A stretch of 64,000 nucleotides of DNA from Pseudomonadales bacterium. GTDB lineage: Bacteria; Pseudomonadota; Gammaproteobacteria; Pseudomonadales; Azotimanducaceae. Location: the NCBI GenBank assembly GCA_963921285.3, contig CAWUFD020000006.1, positions 11,795 through 75,794 of the forward strand. The letters are read 5' to 3'. A model generated the notes under the pieces. That model ran no database searches. It was not told where the DNA came from and saw only the letters and a list, made by a program, of their open reading frames with translations. A program made the position numbers and the translations under genes. Shown here in pieces: positions 2,064-26,652 of the stretch (position 1 is the stretch's first letter; each line of letters opens with the position of its first letter).

Positions 2064-2082
2064 CGCTTGAAACGCGAACCTC

Positions 2083-3864: not shown

Positions 3865-3878
3865 AAGGATTCGATTTA

Positions 3879-6814: not shown

Positions 6815-6820
6815 TCTTCT

Positions 6821-8728
6821 CTATCCACTAAGATTAAGTTGTGGGGTGTTATCAAGTTTACGGCACCAGGCCTCGATCGCCATGAGAGGAAAAAGAGTCA
6901 TTGCGCCATCAACGCGATCTTCGTAAAAATCTCTACGCAGGCGATCAACCTCATCGGCATCAAACAACATTCTGTCTTCCACCGCTGATTTTGAGGTTAG
7001 CTCTTCCAATAGCGGTCTCGCAGGACCCTTTAGCCAACTACGAACGGGGACACCAAATCCCTGTTTCGGTCGTTGCAGAACTTCCTCAGGTAATCGATTG
7101 CTCTGAGATTTTCTGAGAATTTTCTTCGTGCTGTTTAGAGAGATTAAATCTGATAGCGGCAGGCTTCTCGCGTACTCGACAAGTCTCGGATCACACAGAG
7201 GAACCCGAACTTCAATTCCTTCAAGCATTGCCATCTTGTCGGTATAGTTCAAGTTGTGATCTGGTAAAAAACCCAACATTTCAAGATCAAGAATTCGCTC
7301 TACCGGATGAAGTTGTTTTGTTGCTTCCAGTGACCGGAGAACATTTGGAGAAACTCCTGATTCTGGCAGTTCATGCCAGTGGGACCGATGTACTAACCGC
7401 ATTCTTTGGTCAGACTTCACCCCGGAGAAACTCATCGCATCAACGATCATCGATTCCTCGTCGCGCGAAAGCAGCTCACCGATGCGCTTAACCCTTCTGC
7501 CCATCAGCGTGCCGGCGGGGACGAGAGCCAACATTTGCCCAAGGACCTTCCTTAACACACCCAGGCTGTTAATCTGCTGATAAAACAACGCCGCAGTATG
7601 TCTTCCATAACCAGTAAACAGATCATCCCCACCTACGCCAGACAAAAGCACCTTTACGCCCTTTTGCCTGGCAGCCCTCGCTAGAAACCTGGTTTGGAGA
7701 GCAGAGAAGTCCGCTGTGGGTTCATCCAACGACCAGACCATACTCTCCAACATGTCTATCACGTCGACATCGGTAGCGACTTCCACCAGGTTCACACCGA
7801 AGTGAGCAGCCACCCGTTTAGCAAATTTCTCATCGTCTCCAAAGTTGTCTGCACCTGCTTCAGCCGCTTGAACTGACGCACAGAACGTCGTTATCTGATC
7901 AGGAGGCATCACTCTGCACATGGAGGCAACTATCGCGCTGGAATCGACGCCACCTGACAGCAATGCACCTACCTCGACGTCAGACACCATCTGCTCACCG
8001 ACAACTTCATCGATTAGATTTCGCAGATCCGCATCTGACCCGGGCAGACCGTGGCTCACAGTCGGCACTCTATAGTAGCGCTCGATTTTTACGCCAGAAG
8101 AGTCAACTTTCATGTAACAACCCGGACGAAGTTTCTTTATCTTCCGGATCATCGTTGACTCACCCGCTGTCCACAGAAAACCAAGGTGGTCTGCGACAGC
8201 AATGGGATCAATATCTCGTTTAACGTCAGGGCACAAAACCAGAGACTTCAATTCGCTTGAAAAGAGAAACCCCTTGTCAATCTCGGCGTAATAGAGGGGT
8301 TTGACACCTATCTGATCTCTAGCGATGAAAAGCCGTTTCTCTTTTTGATCCCAGATCGCGAACGCAAATATCCCATGCAATTTCTGTAAACAGCTCTCGC
8401 CCTCACGCATGTAAAGATGCAACAGAACTTCCGTATCACTATGGGCCTTAAACGAAACTCCGACGGATTCAAGGGAGCGTCGCAACGCAACATAGTTATA
8501 TATTTCACCGTTGAACGTAAGGATGTATCGTCCATCTTCACTGAACATTGGCTGCGCTGCGTTATCAGATAGGTCTATTATCGAGAGGCGGGTGTGTCCC
8601 AGTGCCACGTTGCAGCTATCGTCGAGATAGACGCCTTGACCATCGGGACCTCTGTGAGCGAGAGAACCGACCATTTTTTCGATAAGTTCTTCAGGCCAAG
8701 GTCCCATGTAACCAACTATTCCACACAT
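6821..8728 (-). CDS. Asparagine synthase (glutamine-hydrolysing)-like amidotransferase
   Basis: N-terminal nucleophile MCGIVGY, the GATase-II domain, and the PP-loop SGGVDSS. 635 aa. In glycan loci this family amidates uronic acids (WbpS-type). Confidence 0.9.
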   Translation of the reverse strand: MCGIVGYMGPWPEELIEKMVGSLAHRGPDGQGVYLDDSCNVALGHTRLSIIDLSDNAAQPMFSEDGRYILTFNGEIYNYVALRRSLESVGVSFKAHSDTEVLLHLYMREGESCLQKLHGIFAFAIWDQKEKRLFIARDQIGVKPLYYAEIDKGFLFSSELKSLVLCPDVKRDIDPIAVADHLGFLWTAGESTMIRKIKKLRPGCYMKVDSSGVKIERYYRVPTVSHGLPGSDADLRNLIDEVVGEQMVSDVEVGALLSGGVDSSAIVASMCRVMPPDQITTFCASVQAAEAGADNFGDDEKFAKRVAAHFGVNLVEVATDVDVIDMLESMVWSLDEPTADFSALQTRFLARAARQKGVKVLLSGVGGDDLFTGYGRHTAALFYQQINSLGVLRKVLGQMLALVPAGTLMGRRVKRIGELLSRDEESMIVDAMSFSGVKSDQRMRLVHRSHWHELPESGVSPNVLRSLEATKQLHPVERILDLEMLGFLPDHNLNYTDKMAMLEGIEVRVPLCDPRLVEYARSLPLSDLISLNSTKKILRKSQSNRLPEEVLQRPKQGFGVPVRSWLKGPARPLLEELTSKSAVEDRMLFDADEVDRLRRDFYEDRVDGAMTLFPLMAIEAWCRKLDNTPQLNLSG

Positions 8729-8954
8729 AAAGACACTAACCTTTTAAGCAGATAAGTACGTTGACACAGAATTTCCTTCACGAAGAAACTCAATATAGTT
8801 GCTATCCTTATACGATCAGACAATTCAAGCTCTTTGAGAAAACTGTGATACAAGACCATTTCAATGGAACGTTGAAAAGCAGGATGGTCTAATTCAATCC
8901 AATCGCCGCTGGCTGGAAAATTACCCTGCACAAGGATCAAAATCAGGCCGTTTC

Positions 8955-10658
8955 CTATTCATCTTCATGTGGTCTTTCTTCGGCGGGGTACACAAACTCA
9001 GTGCCGTTCAGAATCCCATCACAGATCAGATCAAGCCCAAGGCATTTATCAGGAAGAAGTTCATCAACCCGCGTTATACCCAACGCGAAGGCCATGTTGT
9101 TTTTCGTCTTCTCTACGATAGGCAGGAAGATGCCGCGACGGTAAAAAAAGTGATACGCGTATTTTCTAGCTTCGTGAATCGTTTCAGCGTCCATGCGCTG
9201 ATTAATCGGCAACTTGTCCAGGATCTGGAAGTATTCTTCCTTGGAACTGGCATCCATTGTCAGTCCCTTGTTACGTATCCATGCTTCACCAGCCACAATT
9301 ACCGGCACGCCTCTCGCTGTCAGCTCTACTCCGGTTTTCGTACCATACACAAGCACACTATCGCAGGCTTGCATGATGGCGTACGTGCTTATTTTGCTCT
9401 CAGGTGGAACAAGAAAAATATTGGGCGGCAGTTCTGGAAAGACCTTTCCAATTTCGGCTAACAGGGGTTGCCTTGATTTGCTGTAGCGTTTGACCTCGGC
9501 AGGATGAGCCCGGACAATCAATTGCAGTTCGGGTCGCTGAGCAAAATACCTGACTGTTTCGATAGCCCATTCAATCAAATTCGTAAAGGCATTAGCGGGA
9601 TAATGCAACTGGGCATCCCAAACCACATTAGGAAGTAAGCCAATAGTCGGCTTGGAAAAATCAATACCCATTTCCTGAACTGCAAACTCAAGTGATGGAT
9701 TAGCGTTTTCATTGAACTGCTGCCAATCCCGTGACCCTTCTTCACGACTGTACAGATATTCCATGACCTGTTCTTCCAGCTGAGGGGTCAGTTCGAGCGA
9801 TTTCCAATTAGAAACTGGTTCGTTCATCAACATGTGATGATAAGTATCGTAATGTGTGAAGATGAATCTTCTTGAGCGGTAGGCAGTGTTCCAGTTCACA
9901 ACACCTACGCCTTTTTTCCTTGCGACGGCACCCAGGACACCATGTGGTATGTAGATTCCGTGGTAAAACACGGTTTGCTCAAACCCACCTTGATCCAGCA
10001 AATTGTTCATTGCATACATCGTCAGCAAGGCAGACTTCAGGTATCTTCTCAATATGGGGTCAGCGTAGTCCTGGCTTTGAAGGTCACCGGTACAATAGAA
10101 CCTAAGCGCGCCTGATATCGCGTGTTCACCAATTGGGAGGCCCTCGTACTCAAACGTTGCGATGTCTTCGTAGGCAATCGTGTCAACGAGGTCATCAATT
10201 TTTTTGAGCTCGTCCTGAGTTACAAACTCACTATAGGTGTTAACTTTCAGACCCAGGTCAGTGTACATTTGTCTGGAATAGGTGTAACAACCTACGCAGC
10301 TTTTTATCCCCTGAGGTCCCGAAGTGGCAAACTGCTTAAGATTGCCAACCTGTCCGAACTCAGTTTTAGCGCAACCGGGTAAAGATTCATCACATAACAT
10401 GACCTCAACATTAGCACCACGAAGTGTTAGTGCGACGGCCAGCATGCTCTCGATGATATTTCCGCTTCGATGGGCACCAACACTGGTGGCGATAAGAACT
10501 TTTTTGCCGCTTGCAGCAGACTTTTTCGCCGTTTCCCAAAGCTCCCTGTCCGGTGCCACCAACGCCCGCCAGTCCGGATAAGGGCCCATACGAAATCTGG
10601 TTCTGATTTCTTCTTTGATCTCTACCGGTAAGTTCTTTTTGATGAATTCAACAATCAC
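8955..10658 (-). CDS. Large GT-B-like protein with an N-terminal Cys4 cluster and a KpsS/KpsC (Capsule_synth)-like C-terminal half. Candidate ulosonic-acid transferase
   Basis: 567 aa. Cys pattern is C89-x6-C96...C121-x2-C124. The region LLPNVVWDAQ...LQLIVRAHPAE...DSVLVYGTKTGVELTARGVPVIV resembles the capsule-synthesis family. It is a distant paralogue of 30584-32356 with the same architecture. Confidence 0.4.
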   Translation of the reverse strand: MIVEFIKKNLPVEIKEEIRTRFRMGPYPDWRALVAPDRELWETAKKSAASGKKVLIATSVGAHRSGNIIESMLAVALTLRGANVEVMLCDESLPGCAKTEFGQVGNLKQFATSGPQGIKSCVGCYTYSRQMYTDLGLKVNTYSEFVTQDELKKIDDLVDTIAYEDIATFEYEGLPIGEHAISGALRFYCTGDLQSQDYADPILRRYLKSALLTMYAMNNLLDQGGFEQTVFYHGIYIPHGVLGAVARKKGVGVVNWNTAYRSRRFIFTHYDTYHHMLMNEPVSNWKSLELTPQLEEQVMEYLYSREEGSRDWQQFNENANPSLEFAVQEMGIDFSKPTIGLLPNVVWDAQLHYPANAFTNLIEWAIETVRYFAQRPELQLIVRAHPAEVKRYSKSRQPLLAEIGKVFPELPPNIFLVPPESKISTYAIMQACDSVLVYGTKTGVELTARGVPVIVAGEAWIRNKGLTMDASSKEEYFQILDKLPINQRMDAETIHEARKYAYHFFYRRGIFLPIVEKTKNNMAFALGITRVDELLPDKCLGLDLICDGILNGTEFVYPAEERPHEDE

Positions 10659-12403
10659 AAATTTTTCTCTTCTGGAATCAAAATCGCATCCACGACCATT
10701 TCTTCTTCTGGTAGTTCTCCGATTGCTGACGATATCAACTCACCGTCTTTGAAATAAAAAAGCCTATAACCATCATCTAATAAGGGCTTCAGGATATCCT
10801 CGGAGGACTTCCCTGAAATAGCCTGTGTAAACTGGTTGATCTCAATCTGAAATATCGGTCGGTTTTTTTCTATCGTCTTTTTCGCCCCCGATAGAACCGC
10901 CCACTCATGTCCTTCAACATCTATTTTTACAAAATCCAACTTGGGAATCTGTTCACTGTCAACAAACTCATCCACCGTAAAAAACTCCGCCTCCTGTGCT
11001 GATTTTTTGTTTGTGGAATAGACTGATGACAGACTCGGCCTATCCAGACCAACTTTGTTTCCATACCACTCGTGCTGATCTGGGTCAGGTGGTGAAATCA
11101 ACAAACTTTCATGCTTATCAGAAAAGCCCTGATTGAAAGCCTGCACGTTTCCAAGACTATTATTTTCGATATTCTGGCAAAGAAAATCATAACTCAGCTT
11201 TATAGGTTCGAATGAGTAGACCTTACTGTCCGGAATTCTGGAATAGAACATAGAATTTCTTCCGATCGACGCCCCAATGTCGAAGATCACGGGAGACTGC
11301 CTACCCCTTTCATCCAAAACTTCCGAGACCTTTCTGACTTCGGTTTTGAGCTTTTCCAGGTCCCCGCCAAAAAAGAGGTATTGAACAATACCGTGCACGG
11401 AAGCATCCCGAAAAACAAAACCATCCATCGTTATCTCATTATAGTTAGCCCCACCCTTGGTGAGCAGCATCACGGATGCCTTTTTGAAGTTATAAGTCGT
11501 CCCGAAGTACAACTTTTTCAGAAACGCTTTCAGTGGTTTGAGCATAGCTTTAATTTTTTCAAGCCTCCCCGTCTTCGGCATCCTGGACGGATCTTTGTTT
11601 ACGATTCCGTTCTCTGTGTACTCTTTGTTCGAATGGTCGATTGTATACAAATTCGAAATCCCCCCTGCCAGCTTGATCTGTTCTTTTGCTTCCGGTGACT
11701 TTCTCCGTTTCCACATGAATTCTTTGTAGGCTTTCTGATCAACAATTCTCGGCGGAGAGTCGTTAGTGGCAAAGTGTTCATGGTGTTGGTGCACCACCAC
11801 TGTAGTCGGAGACAGATCAATCACGTCTGCACCCAGTCTGCGGGCTTCGTAGATTAACCAGTTGTCGAATGCGATACGACCGACAGTGAAATCTGGAATC
11901 TGCTTCCATAACCCTTTAGGAAAGACAAAATAATCAATCGAGGATCCAGGGCTAAGGCGACCTCTCTCTTTCACCTCTCTTCTGAGGTGTTCACACCAGT
12001 TACCCGAAAAAACATCCAGATCCTCTTCCAAGATCAAGTTCCATCGCTGCCCGACCATCAGAAAAGGCTTATCCTGATAAGCTTCAGCAACCTTCTGCAC
12101 TACCGGCATGAAGTCATCCAGAAACACGATATCCGCATTCACGTACATCAGGACATCATTTGAACCCAACGCAGCTCCTCGCTCGAATAAAGAAGCGAGC
12201 CTGGGCAACCCGGCTTTGAAGCTTATTTGATCATCGGTGTTAAATCCCAGACCCCGTGCCACATCAACTCCCTTCTCGTCAGCTGCAAAAATGTGAACAT
12301 CATTGTTCGGGGACAATTTACTCCAACTGAAAAAGGCGTTCTTCTGTATTCGCATAACTTCATCGTCATGCATCGGTTTCGGTGTGGAAAATATTGTGAG
12401 CAT
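10655..12403 (-). CDS. Fusion protein: N-terminal GT-A-like (glycosyltransferase-like) domain and C-terminal FkbM methyltransferase domain
   Basis: The N-terminus MLTIFSTPKPMH...IQKNAFFSW...MYVNADIVFLDDF belongs to a widespread uncharacterised GT-like family. The C-terminus has FDIGASIGRNS...VYSFEP...FVKIDVEGHEWAVLSGA (FkbM). A 4-nt overlap links it to the downstream gene. Confidence 0.6.
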   Translation of the reverse strand: MLTIFSTPKPMHDDEVMRIQKNAFFSWSKLSPNNDVHIFAADEKGVDVARGLGFNTDDQISFKAGLPRLASLFERGAALGSNDVLMYVNADIVFLDDFMPVVQKVAEAYQDKPFLMVGQRWNLILEEDLDVFSGNWCEHLRREVKERGRLSPGSSIDYFVFPKGLWKQIPDFTVGRIAFDNWLIYEARRLGADVIDLSPTTVVVHQHHEHFATNDSPPRIVDQKAYKEFMWKRRKSPEAKEQIKLAGGISNLYTIDHSNKEYTENGIVNKDPSRMPKTGRLEKIKAMLKPLKAFLKKLYFGTTYNFKKASVMLLTKGGANYNEITMDGFVFRDASVHGIVQYLFFGGDLEKLKTEVRKVSEVLDERGRQSPVIFDIGASIGRNSMFYSRIPDSKVYSFEPIKLSYDFLCQNIENNSLGNVQAFNQGFSDKHESLLISPPDPDQHEWYGNKVGLDRPSLSSVYSTNKKSAQEAEFFTVDEFVDSEQIPKLDFVKIDVEGHEWAVLSGAKKTIEKNRPIFQIEINQFTQAISGKSSEDILKPLLDDGYRLFYFKDGELISSAIGELPEEEMVVDAILIPEEKNL

Positions 12404-12496
12404 TGGCAGCGTTGTTCTATATCTTGAACGTGTTCAATCTAAATTAGTAAAGGGATATCATCTCAACGATAATGGAAGTGGATGGCTCGCTTTGAT

Positions 12497-14440
12497 TTAC
12501 TGACCTGAGCCAGTGACTCTGGTTAGAACTTTTTCCACCAGGCTCAGCGTATCCAGTCCATGAGCCTGCAGTACTTCATCGTTGGTTCCACAATATGGAA
12601 TATCAGACAAACCAAAACTCATAAATTCACTGAAAGATGTATCGATTGTAATTAGTGATGACGCAAGCTTCTCTCCAAAACCGCCACTCAGAAAGTGATT
12701 GTCGAGTGAAACTATGAACTGACACCCCGAGACAATCTGGCGAAGCCATTCTACGTCAAGGTAGTTTAACCATGGGACATTCACCACTTTAACTGTCATC
12801 CCTCCATGGCGCTTTTCAAAAGCATCTGCAAACTCTATAGCAGCGCTGAGCATGACCGGGCCATAGGCAAAAACGACGATGTCATCTCCATCTCTTACTG
12901 GGTAACCTTTTCCCCGTTCGAGAGGGCTGTCTGGAATATCGAAGTCAACAGCAACAGGAATACTGACCAATCGCATGTAAACGCTGTTCTCGGATTCTTC
13001 CACACACCAACGCAGCAACCTATCAACCTCTTGTTCACAACAAGGCTCCACGATATCAAGGCCTGGCACTGCCCCGAGTGAAGAAATATCTCTAACAGAT
13101 TGGTGAGAATGTCCGGGTCCTCCTGGTAAAACACCAGCAAGTGAACCCACGTAAATAATCTTGGTTCGTTCGGACGCGTTATTGTATATCTGCTCGTTGG
13201 GACGGGTTGAAAGGAAACAAGCAAAAGAGTGCACGACTGGTAAGTATCCATTCAGGGCCAACCCACCTGCCTGAGACACCATGTCTTGTTCGGCAATGCC
13301 ACACTCTATGAATCTCTCCGGAATCTGCTCTTTAAACGGAATCAGACCTGTGTCCAGCACGAGATCTGCATCCAGGGCCACGATTTCTTTATTTTCTTTG
13401 GCCAATGACAGCAGAGTTTCCGAATATGCACCGATCAGTTTCTGAGTTTCGCTGTTTTGAGTCTTATCTTCTGAGTCCATCGTTTCGACAAGCAATGGAC
13501 CAAGACCAGCTCCCACAACAAGTCCACTCGTCCTCTCAAAAAGTTCATCAAGAGCATCAAAATATGCACTTGATGATGGAGCGCCACTGTGGAACTGATA
13601 ATACTCATCTTCAGACTGGAGTGACGTATGTTCCATGAACGATACGCCTTTACCCTTGATGGTATCTGCGATAATCACTTTTGGCCCATCTTTCAGCTGT
13701 TTTAACTCCTCAATAGTCGCTGAAAGTACTTTGATGTTATTACCATCACACCTTCTTACGTGCCAGCCAAAAGATTGAAACTTACTTTCAAGATTACCTA
13801 GATCACTCACGTGCGAGACAAACGTATCTGACTGAAGTTTATTGTGATCAACAATAACCAACAGCTCATGAAAGTTACCGCTACTGGCCGTTACAAGAGA
13901 CTCCCAAAACTGCCCTTCCTGCAATTCTCCATCACCAGTGAGAACGATCACCCTTTTGTTTTCGCCGCGCAGTCTATTTGCCTGGATCATTCCCTTGGCC
14001 TTGGAAACCCCCATGCCTAGCGAACCTGTGTTTGTAACAACATGTTCGGTGGAAACATCGGGGTGACCGGGTAGTCCGGAAAGCTTTCTAAGTTGGTGGA
14101 TCAGAGCAAAGTCTAGTTTTTCCAGACCAATCAAAACGTTATATAACGCCGGCGCATCGTGTCCTTTGGAGGAAAAGAAAACGGCCTCATTTCCCTGTTT
14201 GTTTGTGTCCCAAACTTCGTTGAGAAACACCCACGACATAATGTCCATACTACTGAAACTTGTACCAATATGACCGGAACCTGCCTTCGCGATCATGTAC
14301 AACGTGTTTATTCTCGATAACTCTGCAAACAGCGTGGCTTTTTCAACAGGGTCAAGCTCACTGTCCAGTACTTTTCTAAATTCATCTTGAGAGATGTAGT
14401 TCAACTTCCCTTCTACAACCTTGCCAATTTGATCGCCCAA
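12497..14440 (-). CDS. Transketolase-family TPP enzyme, single chain (N-terminal and C-terminal sections fused)
   Basis: Contains GSGHIGTSFS and LTGDGELQEGQFWES (TPP/Mg site), then the pyrimidine-binding region FIECGIAEQDM and a C-terminal domain. 647 aa. Confidence 0.8.
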   Translation of the reverse strand: MGDQIGKVVEGKLNYISQDEFRKVLDSELDPVEKATLFAELSRINTLYMIAKAGSGHIGTSFSSMDIMSWVFLNEVWDTNKQGNEAVFFSSKGHDAPALYNVLIGLEKLDFALIHQLRKLSGLPGHPDVSTEHVVTNTGSLGMGVSKAKGMIQANRLRGENKRVIVLTGDGELQEGQFWESLVTASSGNFHELLVIVDHNKLQSDTFVSHVSDLGNLESKFQSFGWHVRRCDGNNIKVLSATIEELKQLKDGPKVIIADTIKGKGVSFMEHTSLQSEDEYYQFHSGAPSSSAYFDALDELFERTSGLVVGAGLGPLLVETMDSEDKTQNSETQKLIGAYSETLLSLAKENKEIVALDADLVLDTGLIPFKEQIPERFIECGIAEQDMVSQAGGLALNGYLPVVHSFACFLSTRPNEQIYNNASERTKIIYVGSLAGVLPGGPGHSHQSVRDISSLGAVPGLDIVEPCCEQEVDRLLRWCVEESENSVYMRLVSIPVAVDFDIPDSPLERGKGYPVRDGDDIVVFAYGPVMLSAAIEFADAFEKRHGGMTVKVVNVPWLNYLDVEWLRQIVSGCQFIVSLDNHFLSGGFGEKLASSLITIDTSFSEFMSFGLSDIPYCGTNDEVLQAHGLDTLSLVEKVLTRVTGSGQ

Positions 14441-14453
14441 AAGCGTCTCCCCT

Positions 14454-15224
14454 CTAGTTCACAGTGTTTGAATATGGTTCATTTTGAATCTCAGGCAGCA
14501 ATGTCGGATCCTTCGAAAGATACAATTCCGCAAGGACCCAATCCTCTGGACGGTTTATGTCGAACCCTTCCAAACCTTCAGACACAAATGGGATTATTGA
14601 CTGGCCAGCAATACTTCTGTGATCTGAAACTACCGAACATTTGGCTATCTCCAGACTTGCATTCTGCTCGTAAACTTCTGGAAGTGCAGCGTATTGGCTA
14701 CTATGCCAAGGCGTTCCGTTGTTCGAGAAAGGCAGTAACGGAACCATTCGATCACCGTTGATGACCCACATTTTCCCGGGATGCTGATTACATGGTTCTA
14801 CCGCTCTGATAGAGTCCGCCGCGGTATCAACGCGGATGACATCCCACGCCCGACATATGGCTGCAGGTAATCTGAATGGACTTGTGGGTCTCAAGATACT
14901 GAAATAGTCAACGCTTCTGTTTTCTTCCTCTAAAAACGAGAGCATCTGCTGTACCCACTCGATATCCGGAGAAGAGTCACCAGAGATATCAGGCGATCGA
15001 AGAAATGGCACCTCCGCGCCATAGTACTTGGCGATATCTGCGTACAACGGACTATCAGTCGCACAGATCACCGACTCAAACACCGCGCTTTGTAAAGCGC
15101 CCTGAATTGTATAGGCCAACAAGGGGTGTCCGTTCAACAATTTGATGTTTTTGTCAGGAACTCGTTTTGATCCCGATCTGGCCGGTACAAAAGCAACTAC
15201 CCTAGGGTCGAGAGTGTCCATCAC
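14454..15224 (-). CDS. Acylneuraminate/ulosonate cytidylyltransferase (CMP-NulO synthetase family)
   Basis: AFVPARSGSKRVPDKNIKLLNGHPLLAYTI is the CMP-NeuAc/CMP-Kdo synthetase N-terminal signature. The ATG at 15221-15219 overlaps the ALDH stop by 1 nt. The track start at 15224 is a GTG. Confidence 0.8.
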   Translation of the reverse strand: MMDTLDPRVVAFVPARSGSKRVPDKNIKLLNGHPLLAYTIQGALQSAVFESVICATDSPLYADIAKYYGAEVPFLRSPDISGDSSPDIEWVQQMLSFLEEENRSVDYFSILRPTSPFRLPAAICRAWDVIRVDTAADSIRAVEPCNQHPGKMWVINGDRMVPLLPFSNNGTPWHSSQYAALPEVYEQNASLEIAKCSVVSDHRSIAGQSIIPFVSEGLEGFDINRPEDWVLAELYLSKDPTLLPEIQNEPYSNTVN

Positions 15225-16681
15225 AAACTATCCCGTACCAGGATTGATATGTTCTTCAGTTCGGAATAAACGTCCAAGGCCTCTAACCCAGGTTCTCGCG
15301 TTCCGTTCCCTGAGCCGCCCACGCCGCCAAACGGCATATGAGGTTCGCTACCGTAGGTCCCAAAATTCACGTTGGCAACGCCCGCACGTACGCCATGGCA
15401 AAAAGCCATCGCCCTATCAATATTCTGCGTATGTATCGCAGCCGTCAGTCCGTAATCCGAATCGTTTACAGCCATCATCGCTTCATCAAAAGACCTGACG
15501 GCGTGGATGGTAGCTACAGGTCCGAATAGCTCTGTTGAATTGATTGTGGACTCCCTGGTCAGGCCCTCAATCAAGGTGGGTTGTACATAGTATCCAGACA
15601 GGTCGGACATTGCCGAAGTATCACTCCCCCCACACAGGACAACAGCCCCTGCGTTTTCCGCCTGTTCGAGCAATCCAAGGATTCTCTCCTGTTGTCTCTT
15701 GTTGATGACGGGACCTAAATCAGCGCCTCTGTGCGTGCCCAGAACAAGCGACTGCGCTTTTTTCACCAGTTTTTCGACAAACTCCTCGTAGACCGAATCA
15801 AACACAGTGAATCTACTGGCCGAAGCACATCGCTGACCAGCATTACTGAATGCTGACAATGATGCCCAATGCACGGCATTGTCTATGTCAGCATCATCAC
15901 ATACGAGAAATGGATTTTTGCCACCAAGTTCGAGTGATATTCTGGCGAGTCGCCTTCCAGCCACCTCAGCAATTTCTCGGCCTACCGAGGTCGAACCGGT
16001 GAAACTGATGACTGCGACTCTATCATCCACAACAAGTTCCCTGCCTGCCCTGTCACCCTGACCATGGATCACATTGAAAACACCGTCAGGTAAGCCAGCT
16101 TTCTGGAACAGACTACCCATGAGTGAACCCAGCGATGGGGCATCTTCAGATGCTTTTAGGATAGTTGAGTTACCGCAGATTAATGCAGGAAATGTTTTCC
16201 AGGCAATGTTGGCGATCGGCGTGTTTGCAGGAACAATCAGGGCAGCCACGCCTCTTGGCTCTCGGACACTCTGTACCCGTTTACCGGACATGGAGGACGT
16301 CAAGGTCCTGCCAAATAGCCTGCTCCCTTCCCCAGCGAAGTATTCAGCTTGAGCAATTGCGGCTCGAACTTCGCCTTCTGCGTCCTGAGGAGGTTTGCCG
16401 GTTTCACGAGCAACACACTCACTTAGTTCATCGACGCGCACCTTCATTTCTGCTGCGATCTCGAAAAGAATCTGTCCTCTTTCTACTGGCGTTGTCGCTG
16501 CCCAACCGGGAAACGCTCTGACCGCTACGCTGATAGCGTGATCAACATCCTGCTTCGTCGAATTGTAAATCAGACTTTGGAGCGCACCTGTATGGGGATC
16601 GTACTTCTCTAAATGATCCCCCTGCGTCGCTGACTCTTTGCCTTCAATCCAATTAGCAATGGTTTGATGATTCTCAGACAT
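15221..16681 (-). CDS. NAD(P)-dependent aldehyde dehydrogenase
   Basis: Motifs ELGGKNP and the catalytic Cys FSNAGQRCASASR. 486 aa. Confidence 0.9.
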   Translation of the reverse strand: MSENHQTIANWIEGKESATQGDHLEKYDPHTGALQSLIYNSTKQDVDHAISVAVRAFPGWAATTPVERGQILFEIAAEMKVRVDELSECVARETGKPPQDAEGEVRAAIAQAEYFAGEGSRLFGRTLTSSMSGKRVQSVREPRGVAALIVPANTPIANIAWKTFPALICGNSTILKASEDAPSLGSLMGSLFQKAGLPDGVFNVIHGQGDRAGRELVVDDRVAVISFTGSTSVGREIAEVAGRRLARISLELGGKNPFLVCDDADIDNAVHWASLSAFSNAGQRCASASRFTVFDSVYEEFVEKLVKKAQSLVLGTHRGADLGPVINKRQQERILGLLEQAENAGAVVLCGGSDTSAMSDLSGYYVQPTLIEGLTRESTINSTELFGPVATIHAVRSFDEAMMAVNDSDYGLTAAIHTQNIDRAMAFCHGVRAGVANVNFGTYGSEPHMPFGGVGGSGNGTREPGLEALDVYSELKNISILVRDSL

Positions 16682-16690
16682 GACTCAGAT

Positions 16691-17518
16691 TCAAATCGCG
16701 GTCCAACCGCCATCGATGACAAGGTTGGAACCAGTCATATACGCAGAAGATTCACTGGCCAGGAATAGCAACGCACCATTGTAGTCAGTTTCATTCGCCA
16801 TCCTCCCTATAGGGATCCTTTTGTTGTAAGCATCCAGAAAATCATCATCCTGATTGTTATAGACTCCAGCTATCGTAAGTGTATTTACTCGTACCCCGTC
16901 CCTGGCCCAATAGGTAGCAAGATATTTCGTCAAATTCAGAATTCCGGATTTTGATGCGGAATACGCAACAGGCTTAAAAAAAACTTCGCCTTTGTCTCTT
17001 CGGTACTGATAAATTGACTGATCAGGCGAGACCAAACCGTAAATCGAAGCAACATTCACTATCGATCCACTATTTCTAGCTGCCATCGATTTTCCATAAA
17101 CCTGGCAGGCCAGAAACACACCCTTAAGATTGACCGTCATCACCCTATCCCAGGATTCTTCAGGATAGTCCTCAAAATAACCAACTTCCTCTGCCGGTGC
17201 ATCAGGCGGCGAGTCTATACCTGCGTTGTTAATCAAGACGTCTGGCGAACCCAGTGCTGTTTCGACCTGCAGCAGTGAATTACTCAGAGAAGTCTTGCTG
17301 GTAACGTCTGCACGGCAGAAAATGAACTGGTTATCGTACTTTTCCCTGAGTCTTGTTGATCGTTCCGATTCACCTAGGTCCAATCCTGCTACGAGAGCAC
17401 CATGTTCGAGAAAGCAGTCTGCATAAACAGCCCCCATCTGGCCACTTACACCAGTGATTACGATGACCTTGTCTTGAATCGAAAACACGTTATCTACCCC
17501 TGTGATCGAGCCAAACAA
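16691..17518 (-). CDS. Short-chain dehydrogenase/reductase (SDR)
   Basis: Motifs ITGVSGQMG, NNAG and YSASKSG (YxxxK). An alternative GTG start at 17488 has AGGGG 9 nt upstream and would remove the 25-nt overlap with the phosphatase gene. Confidence 0.85.
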   Translation of the reverse strand: MFGSITGVDNVFSIQDKVIVITGVSGQMGAVYADCFLEHGALVAGLDLGESERSTRLREKYDNQFIFCRADVTSKTSLSNSLLQVETALGSPDVLINNAGIDSPPDAPAEEVGYFEDYPEESWDRVMTVNLKGVFLACQVYGKSMAARNSGSIVNVASIYGLVSPDQSIYQYRRDKGEVFFKPVAYSASKSGILNLTKYLATYWARDGVRVNTLTIAGVYNNQDDDFLDAYNKRIPIGRMANETDYNGALLFLASESSAYMTGSNLVIDGGWTAI

Positions 17519-18009
17519 ATAAGATCACACAACTCTCTGACGGCCCCATAGCCCCCCTGTCTGGCCGTAATATATTCCACGTGTGGATGAACCTCTGGGT
17601 AGGCATCTGCAACTGCAACTGGTACCCCAACCAGTTCAAAAGCAGGAATATCGTTGATGTCATTTCCTACGAACATGACGCGATCACTCGGGGTGTCGCA
17701 AACAGACATGATCTCCTTCAGTGTCTCAGCCTTGTCGTGCGCACCCTGCCAACAATCAATATTCAATTTCTTACACCGGACCGAAACTACTTTGTTCTGT
17801 TCGGTGGAAAGTACGGCGGTCTTCAGGCCAAGCTTGTGAATTCTGGAAATTCCCAAGCCATCACTACGCCAACATCGAACCGACTCTTCTCCGGTTTCGG
17901 ACACATACACTGAGTTGTCTGTAAAAACCCCGTCGAAGTCAAAAACTATCAGTTCGAGGCCACGAAGGAGATCAGCAGGTATACTATTTTCTCTGATGTT
18001 GGAAGGCAC
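17494..18009 (-). CDS. HAD-IIIA (C0) phosphatase, KdsC / NulO-9-phosphate phosphatase type
   Basis: Motifs FDFDGVFTDN (DxDGxxTD) and VGNDINDIP (GDxxND). 171 aa, the typical KdsC size. Confidence 0.8.
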   Translation of the reverse strand: MPSNIRENSIPADLLRGLELIVFDFDGVFTDNSVYVSETGEESVRCWRSDGLGISRIHKLGLKTAVLSTEQNKVVSVRCKKLNIDCWQGAHDKAETLKEIMSVCDTPSDRVMFVGNDINDIPAFELVGVPVAVADAYPEVHPHVEYITARQGGYGAVRELCDLICLARSQG

Positions 18010-18042
18010 TTGCGGATTCGTTGTCAGTTGTTCGGGATCCGT

Positions 18043-19071
18043 TCAATCCAGCAAATCTAGAGTAATGGCTTCACCAACTTCAATATCGCGTTTCGCAGTC
18101 TTTCCAATCACAAGGTTTGAATCTCTGACTGGCAGGATCTGGTCTTTGAAAATTCTGCCCGACAACATGCGCGAAGATACCACTTCACCTTTTCCAATTT
18201 TGGTCGACGCTATCAGGGACTTTCCAAGCTTCTTGAAAACCATTTCCGAGCCTAACTCTTCTGGCGGCTTCGGATTCATCATGTGGGTTACCCTTCGAAT
18301 ATCCCGGCAGAATTTTCTGAACCCATCAGGCTCAAGCGAAAAGCTGTGATCAGTTCCTCGCCACGAGCGATTAAAGGTGACATGCTTTTCAAACACTCTA
18401 GCTCCTTTGGTGTAAGCGATAGGTCCTGACAATGTGCCATTAAAATGATCAGACAACCCAACAACATAGTCCGGGTATCGCTCAGCCAGCACCTCGATGT
18501 TATCGAGACCAAGTCTGTTGTATTCACAAGGGTATTCAGAAACACAATGGAGTATCGCCAGCTCACTTGGGAATTTGGCGATCGTCTCTACACTTGACGC
18601 AATCTGATCAGATTTTCCGCCACCAACGCTGATAACGGTAGGGACGTTAGACTCAGCAATTCGCTCTATGAGTGGCAAGTTGCCAAGATCAAAAGACGCA
18701 ATCTTCAGCACGTCAACGCCAGTATCCAACAGCAATTGCAGGCTGGGTTCATCAAAAGGCGTTGACATGAATTTAACACCGAGTTTATGGCAATCATCCC
18801 TCAAGGCAGGTAACCATTCCGGCTTTAGCTCAAGCATCTCCCGGTGCGCGCCATAGGTCTCCGCAAAGGCATTCTCACTCTCATACGACGCATTGTATGA
18901 AAAATCGTCGAACAGGTATTTGTTACATCGCGTCTGGAACTTAATTGCATCCGCACCAAGGCTCGCGAACACTTTTATGTATTCCCTCGCGGTATCCAGG
19001 TCACCTTGATGGTTTTGACCTACTTCCGCGATTATAAAAACATCATCAACAAGTTCGGATTTCTTGAACAA
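18043..19071 (-). CDS. NeuB-family PEP-condensing synthase of the phosphate-dependent (NANS / Kdn-9-P synthase-like) type, with a C-terminal SAF domain
   Basis: FIIAEVGQNHQGDLDTAREYI..GADAIKFQ, TYGAHREMLE, DHSFSLEPDGF and KLGKSLIASTKIGKGE parallel human NANS as I recall it. TTG start at 19071. Confidence 0.8.
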   Translation of the reverse strand: MFKKSELVDDVFIIAEVGQNHQGDLDTAREYIKVFASLGADAIKFQTRCNKYLFDDFSYNASYESENAFAETYGAHREMLELKPEWLPALRDDCHKLGVKFMSTPFDEPSLQLLLDTGVDVLKIASFDLGNLPLIERIAESNVPTVISVGGGKSDQIASSVETIAKFPSELAILHCVSEYPCEYNRLGLDNIEVLAERYPDYVVGLSDHFNGTLSGPIAYTKGARVFEKHVTFNRSWRGTDHSFSLEPDGFRKFCRDIRRVTHMMNPKPPEELGSEMVFKKLGKSLIASTKIGKGEVVSSRMLSGRIFKDQILPVRDSNLVIGKTAKRDIEVGEAITLDLLD

Positions 19072-19234
19072 TGGGAGTGCCTAATTTCTGAAAATGGAGA
19101 AGGATAGAGAAAAAAAATAAGATTTAAAGATACTCACGATAAATCATGCCTGACCCTGACTATTTCCACTGGAGCTAGAATCACAAGTACGCGAAACTGT
19201 CAGGTAATCTGATTTTTTTACCGTGGCACGCAGT

Positions 19235-19920
19235 TTAACCTAAATGAATGATGTTGCGGATGATAATCAGCAAAACCCGACGACCCGTTATCGACAATTT
19301 CAAAGCATCTTGGCTAGTAAAGTTTTTGGAATAAGTAGTCACACCGGCAACTCCGCTGTCATCAAGCTGAACGATCTTGTTGCAGTGTCTCAGACTGGAT
19401 ATCCGCTGCGCAACCATGATCACAGTTACGTTCCTATCGAGGCTTTTTAATGCCTCAATTGCCCAGTGCTCAGCTTCATTATCCAACGCACTAGTCGCTT
19501 CATGCAGAAGCATCAAGATACCAGTGAAGATGACGTCGAGATGCTTTTTAAACGTTGCCCGCGTAATACCAATTCAGGAGTGGACCCATTTCTTTCCCAG
19601 GTGACTCAGTGATAAATCGTCACTGCCGCCACTTTGGCAGCAGTCTCAAAGCCAACAGCATCCGGTGCTTGTGTCCGGTGACGGTCCGGAACGGAATCTC
19701 GCAGGTGCTCTTGACGAATACCTTGTTTGCAGCCTGAATCAGTTGAGATACTCCGCGTCGCGACTCAGCTCGAGCCCCTAGGATGACTCTATTTGCAAGC
19801 TCGTAAAACATCGGAATAAGGCCACAGCAAAAACTAAGGCACCGGCAGCATTGGTTTCGTTGACGTCAAACTCAAACTGGGCCAGCTCTGTTTGCTTTGC
19901 AGGCAAAGAAACTGCCTCAA
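19235..19920 (-). pseudogene. Decayed MsbA-type ABC exporter remnant
   Basis: ORF 19235-19516 encodes only the end of an NBD: LLHEATSALDNEAE...NVTVIMVAQRISSL. The Walker-B Asp is replaced by His and the H-loop His by Gln. Upstream pieces in other frames resemble a degraded Walker A (SPGKEMGPLLN) and a TMD-NBD linker. There are multiple frame breaks and no intact TMD. Confidence 0.55.
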
Positions 19921-20245
19921 TATTATCATTTTGTCGAAATTAAGGTCATTCTCACGCTTCCTTCCTTTAAGTTGAGGTCAAACAACTGGACCAAAACTGC
20001 TTTCCGGTTTCACGGTCTGAGCGTTGATGGTTAGGGACATACCGCAAGTCATACATCGACGGAGCACAGATACCAAAGCGAATTCGCAAGGCACTATCAA
20101 AGAAACTGCTCAACTTCCACGTATCCGGTCCGGGAGCAGCTTGGCTCTCAAAATTTTTTCGACTATACGGAGCTACAACATCAAGCATTAGGAATGCCGA
20201 ATGTATAATGATGCTTCAACTCGTAGCGGCACATTCCAGTAAGAC

Positions 20246-20953: not shown

Positions 20954-21679
20954 CTAGCGACGTTGCCTCGCGAGCACAAACGCTTCTGCCGCATCAAACC
21001 CAACGCTGTGCCCTCGATGGAGCGCAAGACTCCTCAGGTGCTCATAGCTCCGCGAGTGCGGTGCGGGTCGCATTTCTTCCGCGTAAGCTTCCAGCGCCTT
21101 CATTTTCGTTTCGAGGTAGCCCGTTATGTCCTCAAACACGTTAGGGGAAAAAACTTCCGCACCAGGCAGTGACCACTCACTCGACGATATAACCTCAAAG
21201 AAGTAAATCTCGTTAACGCTTGAACCAGGCAGCGGCCTGCAGGCAGTCATCACTGCCTCACAGGTCAGACGGTGGTCGACATTCAAATCCCCGGGATGAT
21301 GTGTGTAGACGACAGACGGTAGTATCTCAGCTAGCTTCTGTTCAATCCTCTGGATCACATCCAGAAGCGGAACACTGTCCAGCTTGTTATCTGGGAAGCC
21401 CAGATGGCTGATGCTGGAAACACTCAGGATCTCGGCTGCTGAATCACAGGCTCGCTGCCGCTGATTCGAAGCACTCGCAGCATCACCACCCCTGGCACCC
21501 ACGCCGTCGGCAACAAACAGAAGGTGAACTTCATCACCTTCCGCAACTCTCTTTGCAATGGTTCCTCCACAACCCAAAGCTTCATCATCGGGGTGAGCTG
21601 CAACAACAAGTATCGTGTTCATTTCATCAATTTCGTCATTCGTTGCCTGAAGGGAGCTGATACCCGTCATCCCATTCAT
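20954..21679 (-). CDS. PIG-L / LmbE-family N-deacetylase
   Basis: Motif ILVVAAHPDDEALGCGGTIAK. The likely start is MNTILVV at 21622, which removes the overlap with the upstream gene. Confidence 0.85.
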   Translation of the reverse strand: MNGMTGISSLQATNDEIDEMNTILVVAAHPDDEALGCGGTIAKRVAEGDEVHLLFVADGVGARGGDAASASNQRQRACDSAAEILSVSSISHLGFPDNKLDSVPLLDVIQRIEQKLAEILPSVVYTHHPGDLNVDHRLTCEAVMTACRPLPGSSVNEIYFFEVISSSEWSLPGAEVFSPNVFEDITGYLETKMKALEAYAEEMRPAPHSRSYEHLRSLALHRGHSVGFDAAEAFVLARQRR

Positions 21680-22487
21680 CGATGTCTGAGCGTCGTGTTA
21701 CCCGTGTAAATTCGTCTTTTGGTGCCCGTGACCTGAACCCCATGATCTCCTTTTGTCGGTCTGTCAGCTTCGATACCAGTTCAGCGGGTGTGTTCCTGGT
21801 GAGGTCAAAGGATGGTTTAACAAACCAGCGGGAGTAGGTGCCTATGATGATCCAGCGTTCTTCCTCTGAATACTTAGGACCACTACCGTGCCACACAGAG
21901 CCATCCACCACAGCAAGGCTGCCTGCAGGGCATTCCAACGTTACTTCATCAGGATAAACGGTATCAGGCTCGGCGAACGCAGCTTGATGGTGCGATCGCG
22001 GTACAACCCTCGTAGCACCGTTACGCGGGCCGAACTCATCCAGCACCCAGAAGAATTGAAGCACGAGGGGGTGACCGGTCCCAGGCAGCCTTGAATCAAT
22101 ATGTAATTGCTGGGCCTCGCACTCTCCCACAAGACCGCGCGCCTGGGTCTGTTGAATCTGCCACGGTTCCTGGTCCAGGTAAGAACCCGCACGCAACAGG
22201 TCATCGCAAACTGTGATCACGTTCTCGTCAAAAATCAGGGCGAGAAAATCGTCACTCTTGTTATGAAGGTTGTAGATGAGTTTCACGCCACTGTCGCCAT
22301 GAAAGTTACCTACCCTCGCGGAAGAAACATAGTGCCGGGCGTATCGCTCGTAGCTGTCTTTGCAAAGCGTCCTGTAATGAGCTGCTGCGTCACTCGTCAG
22401 CACATTCTCAAAGACGGTATACCCGACTTCCCGAACCTCGGCGATACCACGTTCAATGCACTCTTTTTCGATTGTTCGCGCCTTCAC
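21636..22487 (-). CDS. Phytanoyl-CoA dioxygenase (PhyH)-family Fe(II)/2-oxoglutarate oxygenase
   Basis: HxD in QLHIDS, NGATRVVPRSH, and the distal His in SVWHGSG. Confidence 0.8.
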   Translation of the reverse strand: MKARTIEKECIERGIAEVREVGYTVFENVLTSDAAAHYRTLCKDSYERYARHYVSSARVGNFHGDSGVKLIYNLHNKSDDFLALIFDENVITVCDDLLRAGSYLDQEPWQIQQTQARGLVGECEAQQLHIDSRLPGTGHPLVLQFFWVLDEFGPRNGATRVVPRSHHQAAFAEPDTVYPDEVTLECPAGSLAVVDGSVWHGSGPKYSEEERWIIIGTYSRWFVKPSFDLTRNTPAELVSKLTDRQKEIMGFRSRAPKDEFTRVTRRSDIDEWDDGYQLPSGNE

Positions 22488-23377
22488 CCGGCGACGCCTC
22501 CTTTCACGAACACCGCCGTGATGAGCCGACCAAGACCAACGCCCAGCATGCTGCGATAAAACTCGATCAGATCATCTGTGTCCTGCCTGGCCATCATCAA
22601 CTCAAAGGCAATGCGTGCTCGATGCGCGTTTTTCCCGACCGAAGGGTCCAGTGCATAGTTTGATGTTTCGTTGAACAAGTAGAGATCAATTGGAAAATCA
22701 GCAATCGCATCCACCATCTCCCATCCACAGCTCATGCCGAGTTGTTGCAGACCTGACTTGTTAAAGTACGACAGGTGTTCGGGTGGACACTCCCAGTAGT
22801 TACCTTTTGCAAGACCCCGATCACTGCATTCCTTCTGGATTGCAGAGTAGTCATTGGGCACCTCGACCATCAGCACTGAATCGTCGGCAGCAAGCTTGAA
22901 GAGGTTTTTAAGCAATAGATCCGGCGTTGGCGAGTGCTCAAGCACATTATCAAGCCACATCACGTCATACTTCTCACCCGCTGATACCAGCCGTTCAATC
23001 GCGGCGTCAGGATGGTCCTGGATCAACTTGTCCGCCAACTGCGGGTTGTGCTGCCGTACCGCGTAGTCGCTGTAATCGATGCCGGTCGGGATCGCACCTT
23101 CTTTTTCCAGGTGCGCAAGCGTCCAACCTTCCCCGACACCCACCTCGAGGACACGTTTACCGGCAAACTCGTCCTGTATGGTCTTTTTCAACAGGGCAAC
23201 CTTGCGTTCGATAATGCGTTGCAGGTAGGCCCGCTCCTCTTCGTCGTACTCGTGCGAATATCGCAAATCCGACTGGAAATACTTCTCCTGGTAAAAGCGA
23301 TCGAGCACCTCCTGGTCTGGCTTAGGGTCGACCTCGTAGTAGCCAAACTGATTTTTTACGATGTTGTATTCAACCAA
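22484..23377 (-). CDS. Class I SAM-dependent methyltransferase
   Basis: Motif VLEVGVGEGWTLAHLEKEGAIPTGIDYS. A 4-nt overlap links it to the downstream gene. Confidence 0.75.
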   Translation of the reverse strand: MVEYNIVKNQFGYYEVDPKPDQEVLDRFYQEKYFQSDLRYSHEYDEEERAYLQRIIERKVALLKKTIQDEFAGKRVLEVGVGEGWTLAHLEKEGAIPTGIDYSDYAVRQHNPQLADKLIQDHPDAAIERLVSAGEKYDVMWLDNVLEHSPTPDLLLKNLFKLAADDSVLMVEVPNDYSAIQKECSDRGLAKGNYWECPPEHLSYFNKSGLQQLGMSCGWEMVDAIADFPIDLYLFNETSNYALDPSVGKNAHRARIAFELMMARQDTDDLIEFYRSMLGVGLGRLITAVFVKGGVAG

Positions 23378-23412
23378 CCGACTGTCCTGCCGTTAACGTC
23401 ATCTGCATTATA

Positions 23413-24817: not shown

Positions 24818-24891
24818 AGTAAGTTTTACAGCTTAACGGCATAGTTTAAGTCGTCAGCGATCATGAAAGTAGTCGAGTTGGGGAGAAGAAT
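24818..24891. promoter_or_regulatory. Divergent promoter region (wbqC operon leftward, pseG operon rightward)
   Basis: Inferred only from gene geometry: a 74-bp AT-rich gap between divergent starts. GGGGAG lies 7 nt upstream of the TTG start of pseG. Confidence 0.3.
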
Positions 24892-26650: not shown

Positions 26651-26652
26651 TC

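Follow-up and report, generated by a model that had tools for sequence, protein, structure and literature searches.

A conserved six-gene cassette from a Pseudomonadales bacterium, predicted to make a CMP-activated ulosonic acid with a truncated side chain

[quoted passage not shown] Such acids shape the bacterial surface as well as immune recognition and the binding of phages or lectins, and their pathways are used for genome-based prediction of glycan structure. In the pathway for Kdn (3-deoxy-D-glycero-D-galacto-nonulosonic acid) of Bacteroides thetaiotaomicron and in the animal NANS/NANP/CMAS route, a sugar 6-phosphate is condensed with phosphoenolpyruvate (PEP) to a nonulosonic acid (NulO) 9-phosphate, which is dephosphorylated to the free acid and then activated as CMP-NulO. 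A second described system lies outside glycan biosynthesis: a transketolase and a succinate-semialdehyde dehydrogenase have been found experimentally to convert 5-keto-gluconate to tartrate, by removal of a C2 unit and oxidation of an aldehyde (PMC13527115), and this route had been proposed earlier, as reviewed (PMC7970118). Here we describe a stretch of 64,000 nucleotides from a Pseudomonadales bacterium (contig CAWUFD020000006.1, positions 11,795 to 75,794; "the window" below), in which six co-directional open reading frames (ORFs) on the minus strand at 12497-19071 encode elements of both systems. They are a NeuB-family synthase, a KdsC-type phosphatase of the HAD superfamily, a short-chain dehydrogenase/reductase (SDR), an aldehyde dehydrogenase (ALDH), a CMP-ulosonate-type cytidylyltransferase (CMPt) and a fused transketolase (TK) homologue. 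Our main reading, in our judgement about evenly poised between right and wrong, is that the product of the cassette is a CMP-activated ulosonic acid with a truncated side chain, destined for a surface polysaccharide; the individual steps proposed below are drawn from sequence and gene context.

The gene arrangement itself is a conserved unit. We sampled one genome per species, scanned this sample with an alignment of the synthase clade, searched by tblastn with all six proteins, and kept the 53 loci whose synthase was at least 55% identical to that of the window. The order NeuB-HAD-SDR-ALDH-CMPt-TK was found in 25 of the 53, each protein being 50-70% identical to its window counterpart, and the hosts included alpha-, beta-, gamma- and delta-proteobacteria, Bacteroidota, Zixibacteria, an Opitutales bacterium and SAR86. 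A Sideroxyarcus metagenome-assembled genome (MAG) had all six genes consecutively and in the order of the window, and a Chlorobium locus had the first five before the locus ended. Named isolates among the carriers were Rhizobium leguminosarum Tri-43 (which has no HAD gene), Bradyrhizobium shewense ERR11, Methyloversatilis thermotolerans 3t and Daejeonella rubra DSM 24536, and Thalassospira povalilytica Zumi 95 is a further culturable carrier. Unsupervised clustering of the ORFs over the loci returned just six widely shared families, namely NeuB (52 loci), CMPt (44 of these 52), SDR (42), ALDH (41), HAD (35) and TK (30, with a split TK in four more). We also ran the comparison in reverse, from the TK clade to metagenome contigs: wherever the contig was long enough, genes for CMPt, ALDH and SDR, along with one of the NeuB family, lay directly upstream. 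Recurrence of this gene order in 25 of 53 independent loci, and on many metagenome contigs as well, far exceeds what chance would give; SDR, TK and ALDH, in particular, are genetically linked in fixed order in dozens of loci.

An annotation made initially from the sequence of the window had reported this six-gene block, its order and its protein families, and our ORF coordinates and Pfam assignments agree with it. It had also stated that a lack of linkage, in other genomes, between the TK, ALDH and SDR genes and those for the synthase, phosphatase and cytidylyltransferase would count against its proposal; the neighbourhood scans revealed the opposite, a strongly conserved linkage of the three to the synthase and cytidylyltransferase genes. 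Its remark that it knew of no characterised pathway with this gene set is in keeping with our search of the full-text literature, in which most subscription journals are not covered and in which we found no paper describing the set. The core of the cassette follows the known phosphate-type logic of the Kdn and NANS routes. No pathway that we found includes the SDR-TK-ALDH triad embedded in this core, the phosphate-blind clade of TK homologues or the linked KpsC-like transferase.

The synthase belongs to the NeuB/NANS family, as judged from its full-length alignment to the NeuB and PseI models and from the PF08666 SAF domain carried by its homologues. It scored 241.3 bits against the NeuB equivalog TIGR03569 (cut-off 399.65) and 198.4 bits against the PseI equivalog TIGR03586 (cut-off 340.25). 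In a neighbour-joining tree it was nearest to the synthase of a Piscirickettsiaceae MAG (L020), and its clade had 100% neighbour-joining bootstrap support and was separate from classical NeuB; homologues in many phyla are about 70% identical to it. Thus the synthase differs from ordinary NeuB, LegI and PseI enzymes, as had been implied at the outset. The peptide motifs quoted there (FIIAEVGQNHQGDLD, TYGAHREMLE, SLEPDGF and KLGKSLIASTKI) were all found in the translation, and the second NeuB homologue of the window, with IIAEISANHNGS, was located at 26653-27705 on the plus strand.

The claim that these motifs follow the pattern of NANS and Kdn-9-phosphate synthases, was sustained only in part. 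In phmmer comparisons the synthase scored higher against human NANS (183 bits) than against Bacillus subtilis SpsE (149), PseI (113) or Neisseria meningitidis NeuB (110); the NANS query is corroborated in part, by the match of its C-terminal domain to PDB entry 1wvo. Yet the identity to NANS is 32%, and the wider group, in which the window clade stands with NANS, a Leptospira NeuB, a Bacteroidota NeuB-HAD clade and a second clade linked to the module, had a bootstrap value of only 67%. The description "NANS-like" is therefore plausible but not proven on these comparisons. Genomic context fits better as an argument for a phosphorylated substrate: the KdsC-type phosphatase gene directly follows that of the synthase in 35 of 52 loci (about two-thirds), and is missing from both loci in which the triad adjoins a NeuC/NeuB pair. 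On this indirect evidence, the synthase probably forms Kdn-9-phosphate. The phosphatase has readable HAD motifs (DFDGVFTD and GNDIND) and scored 119.5 bits against the KdsC subfamily TIGR01670 (cut-off 106.95), which makes it the only cassette protein to pass any curated NCBIfam threshold; none of the six reached an equivalog cut-off, although the catalytic motifs of all six could be read in the translations. Its scores against the equivalogs for Kdn-9-phosphate phosphatase (NF058599, 92.8 versus 180 bits) and KdsC (NF007019, 128.8 versus 208 bits) fell short, and a phosphorylated ulosonate is its predicted substrate.

The nearest solved structure to the TK homologue is human TKT (4kxu, 170 bits), and we examined the homologue in alignments of 31 clade members and, later, of about 119 homologues. 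The alignment to TKT corroborates in part the human sequence and the residue roles used here. The fold of a canonical transketolase was present, as were the catalytic residues and those for thiamine diphosphate (ThDP) and Mg, namely H37, H77, H110, D155, N185, H258 and E366 in human numbering; the equivalent H57, H94, H126, D170, N200, H284 and E384 of the window protein vary little or not at all, each being present in 116-119 of about 119 homologues. In contrast, the sugar-phosphate site was not retained. R318 is replaced by I or V, S345 by D, H416 by L and R474 by S, and D424 is replaced by P (I/V336, D363, L434, S493 and P442, respectively, in the window protein), a signature kept in about 110 homologues (roughly 90-95%). 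We take the first four of these positions to be sugar-phosphate-binding in TKT, and D424 to be the residue that reads the C4 (C4/C2) hydroxyl of the donor, an assignment that the alignment corroborates only partly. The clade has residues of its own as well (K147, K149 and R450). Scores were 354.4 bits against the best transketolase equivalog (NF004559; cut-off 488) and 179.8 bits against DXS (cut-off 465.95), and the clade appears to be a dedicated one, found almost only in the context of the cassette. With all four sugar-phosphate-binding positions replaced, the TK homologue is, judging from its residues, not a pentose-phosphate enzyme but a ThDP-dependent enzyme that cleaves or transfers a ketol unit of a non-phosphorylated substrate. 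We propose that it is a C7-C8 lyase or a ketol transferase; a non-phosphorylated substrate would explain why the phosphatase acts before it.

Not all loci contain the specialised fused form. It is replaced by a different type, split into two genes, in loci L008 (13861-15643) and L014 (14116-15885), and by a divergent TK of only 29% identity in L034 (14619-16355); the proteins of these three loci keep canonical-like S345 and H416. There were also three high-GC metagenome contigs (L113, L126 and L159) on which a TK of the specialised clade occurred with no recognisable cassette partners nearby, in regions where ORF calls are unreliable. A Pfam scan of the neighbours of such TK-only high-GC metagenome loci gave no hits except for a Capsule_synth-like gene in L124.

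In the SDR we read the motifs TGxxxGxG, NNAG and YxxxK. Its top PDB hit, 6uh2, is an unnamed SDR; its named PDB neighbours include sorbitol dehydrogenase and gluconate 5-dehydrogenase, which oxidise a penultimate secondary alcohol to give a terminal ketol, CH2OH-CO. These neighbours lend support to oxidation at C8, and by analogy with them we propose that the SDR is a C8-hydroxyl dehydrogenase that creates a terminal ketol. The ALDH has the motifs ELGGKNP and GQRCAS, with the catalytic Glu and Cys, and is thus a member of the ALDH superfamily. Its best NCBIfam scores were to 2,5-dioxovalerate, alpha-ketoglutaric-semialdehyde and succinic-semialdehyde dehydrogenases, all under the respective cut-offs; this affinity for acid-semialdehyde dehydrogenases supports the proposal that it oxidises a C7 aldehyde to a carboxylate. 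In CMPt the N-terminal SGSKR loop could be read as ARSGSKRVPDKN, in addition to the CTP_transf_3 domain, and the best NCBIfam match, to PseF, reached 124 bits against a cut-off of 205.7.

From these observations we envisage the following series of reactions. The synthase would condense PEP with a hexose 6-phosphate, most simply mannose 6-phosphate to give Kdn-9-phosphate, from which the KdsC-type phosphatase would release free Kdn. The SDR would then oxidise the penultimate C8 hydroxyl, and the product, 8-keto-Kdn, would end in the ketol CH2OH-CO-CHOH. According to our own derivation from Fischer projections, C6-C9 of Kdn and of N-acetylneuraminic acid (Neu5Ac) have the configuration of C3-C6 of D-gluconate; 8-keto-Kdn would be, carbon for carbon, an analogue of 5-keto-D-gluconate, and its ketol would have the D-threo configuration required of transketolase donors. 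The TK homologue would cleave the C7-C8 bond, with C8-C9 leaving as a glycolaldehyde unit, and the C7 aldehyde so formed would be oxidised by the ALDH to give 3-deoxy-hept-2-ulosaric acid, which CMPt would convert to the CMP-sugar. Transfer of this sugar to a glycan would probably be carried out by the KpsC-like protein discussed below, and FkbM methyltransferases may O-methylate it. [quoted passage not shown] We put it at somewhat under an even chance that this is the first biosynthetic route to an ulosaric acid (a 2-keto-3-deoxy C7 diacid of the Dha class), with a dedicated, phosphate-blind TK trimming the glycerol tail that Kdn bears (in a sister version, that of Neu5Ac), the ALDH capping it and CMP activation following.

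Evidence on where the triad acts came from loci in which its partners vary. In L152 (6052-13451) and L162 (6975-14091) the gene order is SDR-TK-ALDH-NeuC-NeuB-NeuA, and the synthases group with N. meningitidis NeuB at 93.5% bootstrap; the triad is in fact linked to at least three robustly separate synthase clades. We infer that it is a portable tailoring module that acts after the synthase. Kdn and Neu5Ac differ at C5 and are identical in the C7-C9 glycerol tail. Since the triad occurs beside both Kdn-type and NeuC/NeuB/NeuA gene sets, its target should be what the two acids share, the glycerol tail, and L152 and L162 imply a Neu5Ac-derived version of the tail modification. The synthase clade of the window also includes plain NeuB-HAD-CMPt trios, as in Synechococcus locus L047, so that the triad is an add-on to a Kdn-type core.

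Two further variants bear on the proposed terminal aldehyde and carboxylate. Locus L163, at about 808-831 kb on a linear plasmid of Streptomyces sp. NBC_01237 (NZ_CP108509), has at 2969-19011 the genes NeuB-SDR-TK, followed by an RmlD-like reductase, a HAD protein and a class III aminotransferase, and has no ALDH gene. A terminal aldehyde can be processed either by an ALDH or by an omega-transaminase, and the presence of an aminotransferase in the place of the ALDH thus supports such an intermediate; the product there is possibly an amino sugar acid. Adjacent genes of L163 encode a glyoxalase/dioxygenase-fold protein (possibly HmaS-like), an FMN-dependent dehydrogenase (Hmo-like), an aminotransferase, an AMP-binding enzyme and a LuxR regulator. 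The first three are possible hydroxyphenylglycine genes, and L163 looks like a natural-product cluster that reuses the SDR/TK pair. In L011 (13880-15966), L016, L027 and L036, the stretch between the ALDH gene and that for a divergent CMPt of about 30% identity codes for a member of the enolase superfamily (MR_MLE) and for a keto-acid reductase of the PanE/ApbA type. Acid-sugar enzymes of the enolase superfamily need an alpha-proton beside a carboxylate, and the C1 carboxylate of Kdn has none; these inserts therefore point to a new terminal carboxylate, and suggest that such loci make a further deoxygenated or epimerised derivative.

Several points weigh against tail truncation followed by oxidation. 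We know of no reported bacterial glycan that contains the predicted sugar. The chemistry is deduced from sequence and gene context, and the proline at the D424 position of the TK homologue indicates that canonical donor recognition is not preserved. In a delta-proteobacterial lineage (L015, L021, L028, L030 and L055) the genes are NeuB-SDR-ALDH-CMPt, and no TK or HAD gene lies within 10 kb, which calls either for a TK acting in trans or for another origin of the aldehyde; L044, L101, L115, L121 and L147 have no ALDH. Genes in trans can account for both kinds of locus, and generic transketolases are able to cleave 5-keto-gluconate; both kinds nevertheless keep alive a direct oxidation at C9, in which the SDR would act on the primary C9 hydroxyl of Kdn, the ALDH would complete a nine-carbon diacid (a non-2-ulosaric acid) and the TK would be separate or auxiliary. 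This scheme suits the lineage that lacks TK, and a new terminal carboxylate of any origin would suit the enolase-superfamily and PanE inserts equally. We regard it as unlikely, because TK is present in most loci with SDR and ALDH and has a conserved and specialised active site, because loci without ALDH still hold SDR and TK, and because the named PDB neighbours of the SDR act on secondary rather than primary alcohols; moreover, the loci without TK form a single lineage, and some other loci use a split TK. A reading in which the ALDH merely detoxifies the glycolaldehyde released by the TK was set aside as less likely, since it leaves unexplained both the SDR-ALDH loci without TK and the replacement by an aminotransferase.

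The initial annotation had offered two roles for the triad. In one, TK, SDR and ALDH would prepare an unusual sugar phosphate as the substrate with which the synthase condenses PEP; sugar phosphates are the usual substrates of transketolases, and the synthase clade is distinct from known ones. We disfavour this scheme and think it quite improbable: all four phosphate-binding residues of the TK are replaced, the carboxylate that an ALDH produces is difficult to reconcile with an aldose omega-phosphate, plain trios with a synthase of this clade exist, and the triad accompanies at least three separate synthase clades, including the NeuC/NeuB/NeuA route, whose substrate is free, non-phosphorylated N-acetylmannosamine (ManNAc). 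The other role, oxidation of a terminal aldehyde to a carboxylate, is the one we favour and have made more specific here, on the strength of gene context and sequence. The TK could also act in the direction of synthesis: a glycolaldehyde or acyl unit would be added to the keto-intermediate that the SDR forms, or to a hydroxyl group, as with Rif15 in rifamycin biosynthesis, to give a branched or O-substituted nonulosonic acid that is then oxidised by the ALDH. Transketolase homologues do make non-canonical transfers in natural-product pathways, for example those of rifamycin and anisomycin, and the remodelled substrate channel does not reveal the direction of the reaction. Such an addition would, however, leave a ketol adduct with no obvious aldehyde for the ALDH, the aminotransferase replacement and the enolase-superfamily insert better suit a terminal aldehyde or carboxylate, and we know of no precedent among ulosonic acids; we give it as little chance as the sugar-phosphate scheme. 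Finally, each gene taken singly has a generic annotation, as it would if an ordinary pathway for CMP-Kdn or CMP-sialic acid lay beside unrelated housekeeping SDR, ALDH and TK genes, a coincidence we consider highly improbable given that order and adjacency are conserved across phyla and that the TK forms a dedicated clade with altered substrate residues.

Two other possibilities were rejected on chemical grounds. Decarboxylation of the 2-keto acid itself by the TK would destroy the anomeric centre needed by the cytidylyltransferase, and authentic D-lyxo Dha as product does not fit the C4 stereochemistry of the NeuB family or the C6 configuration of Kdn, by our own stereochemical derivation.

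The features of the cassette and of the two adjacent genes are collected in Table 1. The ALDH and CMPt genes overlap by 4 bp (15221-15224) and those for the phosphatase and SDR by 25 bp (17494-17518), the latter depending on the start called for the SDR; the remaining gaps within the block are 9-33 bp. Both overlaps had been noted in the initial annotation, as had the absence from the six-gene block of any epimerase, aminotransferase, acetyltransferase or 4,6-dehydratase, and all of this was borne out. A scan for promoters and terminators over 8.5-20.5 kb gave no signal exceeding shuffled expectation.

Table 1. Features of the ulosonic acid cassette and adjacent genes (positions in the window)
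Feature	Position	Strand	Length (aa)	Domain evidence
NeuB-family ulosonate synthase, NANS-like (plausible)	18043-19071	-	342	Pfam NeuB (PF03102), 213 bits, residues 32-265
KdsC-type (C0) HAD phosphatase	17494-18009	-	171	Pfam Hydrolase_3/HAD
Classical SDR	16691-17518	-	275	adh_short_C2, 145 bits
ALDH	15221-16681	-	486	Aldedh (PF00171), 486 bits, residues 20-478
CMP-ulosonate-type cytidylyltransferase (CMPt)	14454-15224	-	256	CTP_transf_3 (PF02348), 76.5 bits
Fused TK homologue	12497-14440	-	647	Transketolase_N, Transket_pyr and Transketolase_C
Protein with C-terminal FkbM domain	10655-12403	-	582	Methyltransf_21, residues 375-548
KpsC-like GT-B protein	8955-10658	-	567	Predicted structure and locus context; window protein without Pfam hit

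We include the last two proteins of Table 1 in the functional unit. The gene for the 567-aa protein overlaps the upstream FkbM-domain gene by 4 bp, and full-length homologues, mostly of 41-50% identity, were found in 27 of the fetched loci, in most of them downstream of TK. Some relatives of about 50% identity carry PF05159 and the name "capsule biosynthesis protein". An AlphaFold2 model of the window protein (pLDDT 87) had a GT-B glycosyltransferase fold, and its best matches by TM-score were the KpsC beta-Kdo transferases 6mgb, 6mgc and 8fuw (TMt 0.53-0.57). The family also has an invariant R-x-H-P motif (R383-x-H385-P386), and with the HP motif and the modelled fold the protein resembles KpsC in its predicted structure; a profile search against PDB sequences gave an insignificant match to KpsC (E = 1.5). 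On this model it is likely to be the transferase for the CMP-sugar. FkbM genes lie inside the cassette in 8 genomic loci (for example L009), with a similar insertion in L160, and since FkbM methyltransferases recur in or beside the cassette, O-methylation is likely; the 582-aa protein is probably an accessory, O-methylating enzyme. For its N-terminal part of about 300 aa (given as window 10655-11750) we found no family hit and no homologue in other cassettes.

The surroundings are those of a large surface-polysaccharide locus, with genes for Ugd, FkbM methyltransferases, an AsnB-type amidotransferase, WbqC, a formyltransferase and the separate PseI. Positions 786-8728 encode Ugd, a heparinase II/III-like protein (593 aa), a stand-alone FkbM methyltransferase and the AsnB-type amidotransferase, together with an unusual 719-aa fusion of ADH_zinc_N and GFO_IDH_MocA domains. 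Positions 20954-27705 hold a second, separate ulosonic-acid or amino-sugar block, in which the PseI-type synthase is accompanied by a WbqC-like protein, a formyltransferase, a SAM methyltransferase, a PhyH-family dioxygenase, a PIG-L deacetylase and a protein with a domain like the C-terminal one of GT28; from this one locus the host seems to produce two or more distinct ulosonic acids. The GC content is 0.45-0.49 across positions 8000-20000 and 0.50-0.53 elsewhere in the window, which fits a horizontally mobile glycan cassette.

Under current annotation the cassette would read as a sialic acid synthase plus housekeeping genes. Lineages from soil, fresh water and the sea carry it, among them rhizobia, SAR86, Bacteroidota and Proteobacteria that oxidise sulfur and iron, and so widespread and strongly conserved a gene set leads to the concrete prediction of a new class of activated sugar. 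If the prediction is true, a C7 keto-sugar with two acid groups is on display in many environmental bacteria, where it has gone unrecognised and would be missed by standard surveys of nonulosonic acids, and tailoring of glycans would be a new biosynthetic role for transketolase chemistry. It would also provide an enzymatic route to Dha-like sugars, the biosynthesis of which is still a blank in the field of plant rhamnogalacturonan II and for which standards are lacking, and the Streptomyces variant suggests that the same trick may serve in natural-product biosynthesis.

In summary, the cassette resembles several known systems and departs from each of them. As in the Kdn route of B. thetaiotaomicron and the animal NANS route, its synthase, of the NeuB family, is followed by a HAD phosphatase of the C0 type and by a CMP-ulosonate synthetase, and the window synthase shares the motifs QNHQGDLD, TYG.H, DHS.SLEP and KLGKS with human NANS; the cassette differs in the low identity of the two synthases, in a phosphatase that scores under the Kdn-9-phosphate phosphatase equivalog, and in the three enzymes embedded in it. 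The NeuC/NeuB/NeuA pathway has its synthase and cytidylyltransferase families in common with the cassette and, in L152 and L162, has the triad attached to it, whereas the cassette of the window has a phosphatase, no NeuC and a synthase of a separate clade. The triad itself has the enzyme classes and the chemical order of the route from 5-keto-D-gluconate to L-tartrate, that is, gluconate 5-dehydrogenase or L-idonate dehydrogenase, transketolase and semialdehyde dehydrogenase. That route, however, uses generic transketolases and yields a free metabolite, in contrast to the dedicated TK without a phosphate site, the proposed nine-carbon substrate and the predicted CMP-activated product of the cassette. 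With human TKT and DXS the TK homologue shares the three-domain fold, the ThDP and Mg ligands and the catalytic His and Glu residues, and it is unlike them at five substrate-site positions and in missing all NCBIfam cut-offs. The 567-aa protein is similar to the KpsC and KpsS beta-Kdo transferases (PF05159) in its modelled GT-B fold, in its HP motif and through some of its relatives, and dissimilar in its length of about 570 aa and in having no Pfam hit itself and no significant profile match. As for the sugar, Dha has been documented in the core of a bacterial lipopolysaccharide (PMC4019464), and its biosynthesis and activated form were listed as unknown in 2025 (PMC12168206). The predicted product would be like Dha in formula and functional groups, both being 2-keto-3-deoxy C7 diacids, and unlike it in stereochemistry, with the opposite, NeuB-type configuration at C4 and with C5 and C6 derived from Kdn, which by our derivation gives the L-arabino rather than the D-lyxo form.

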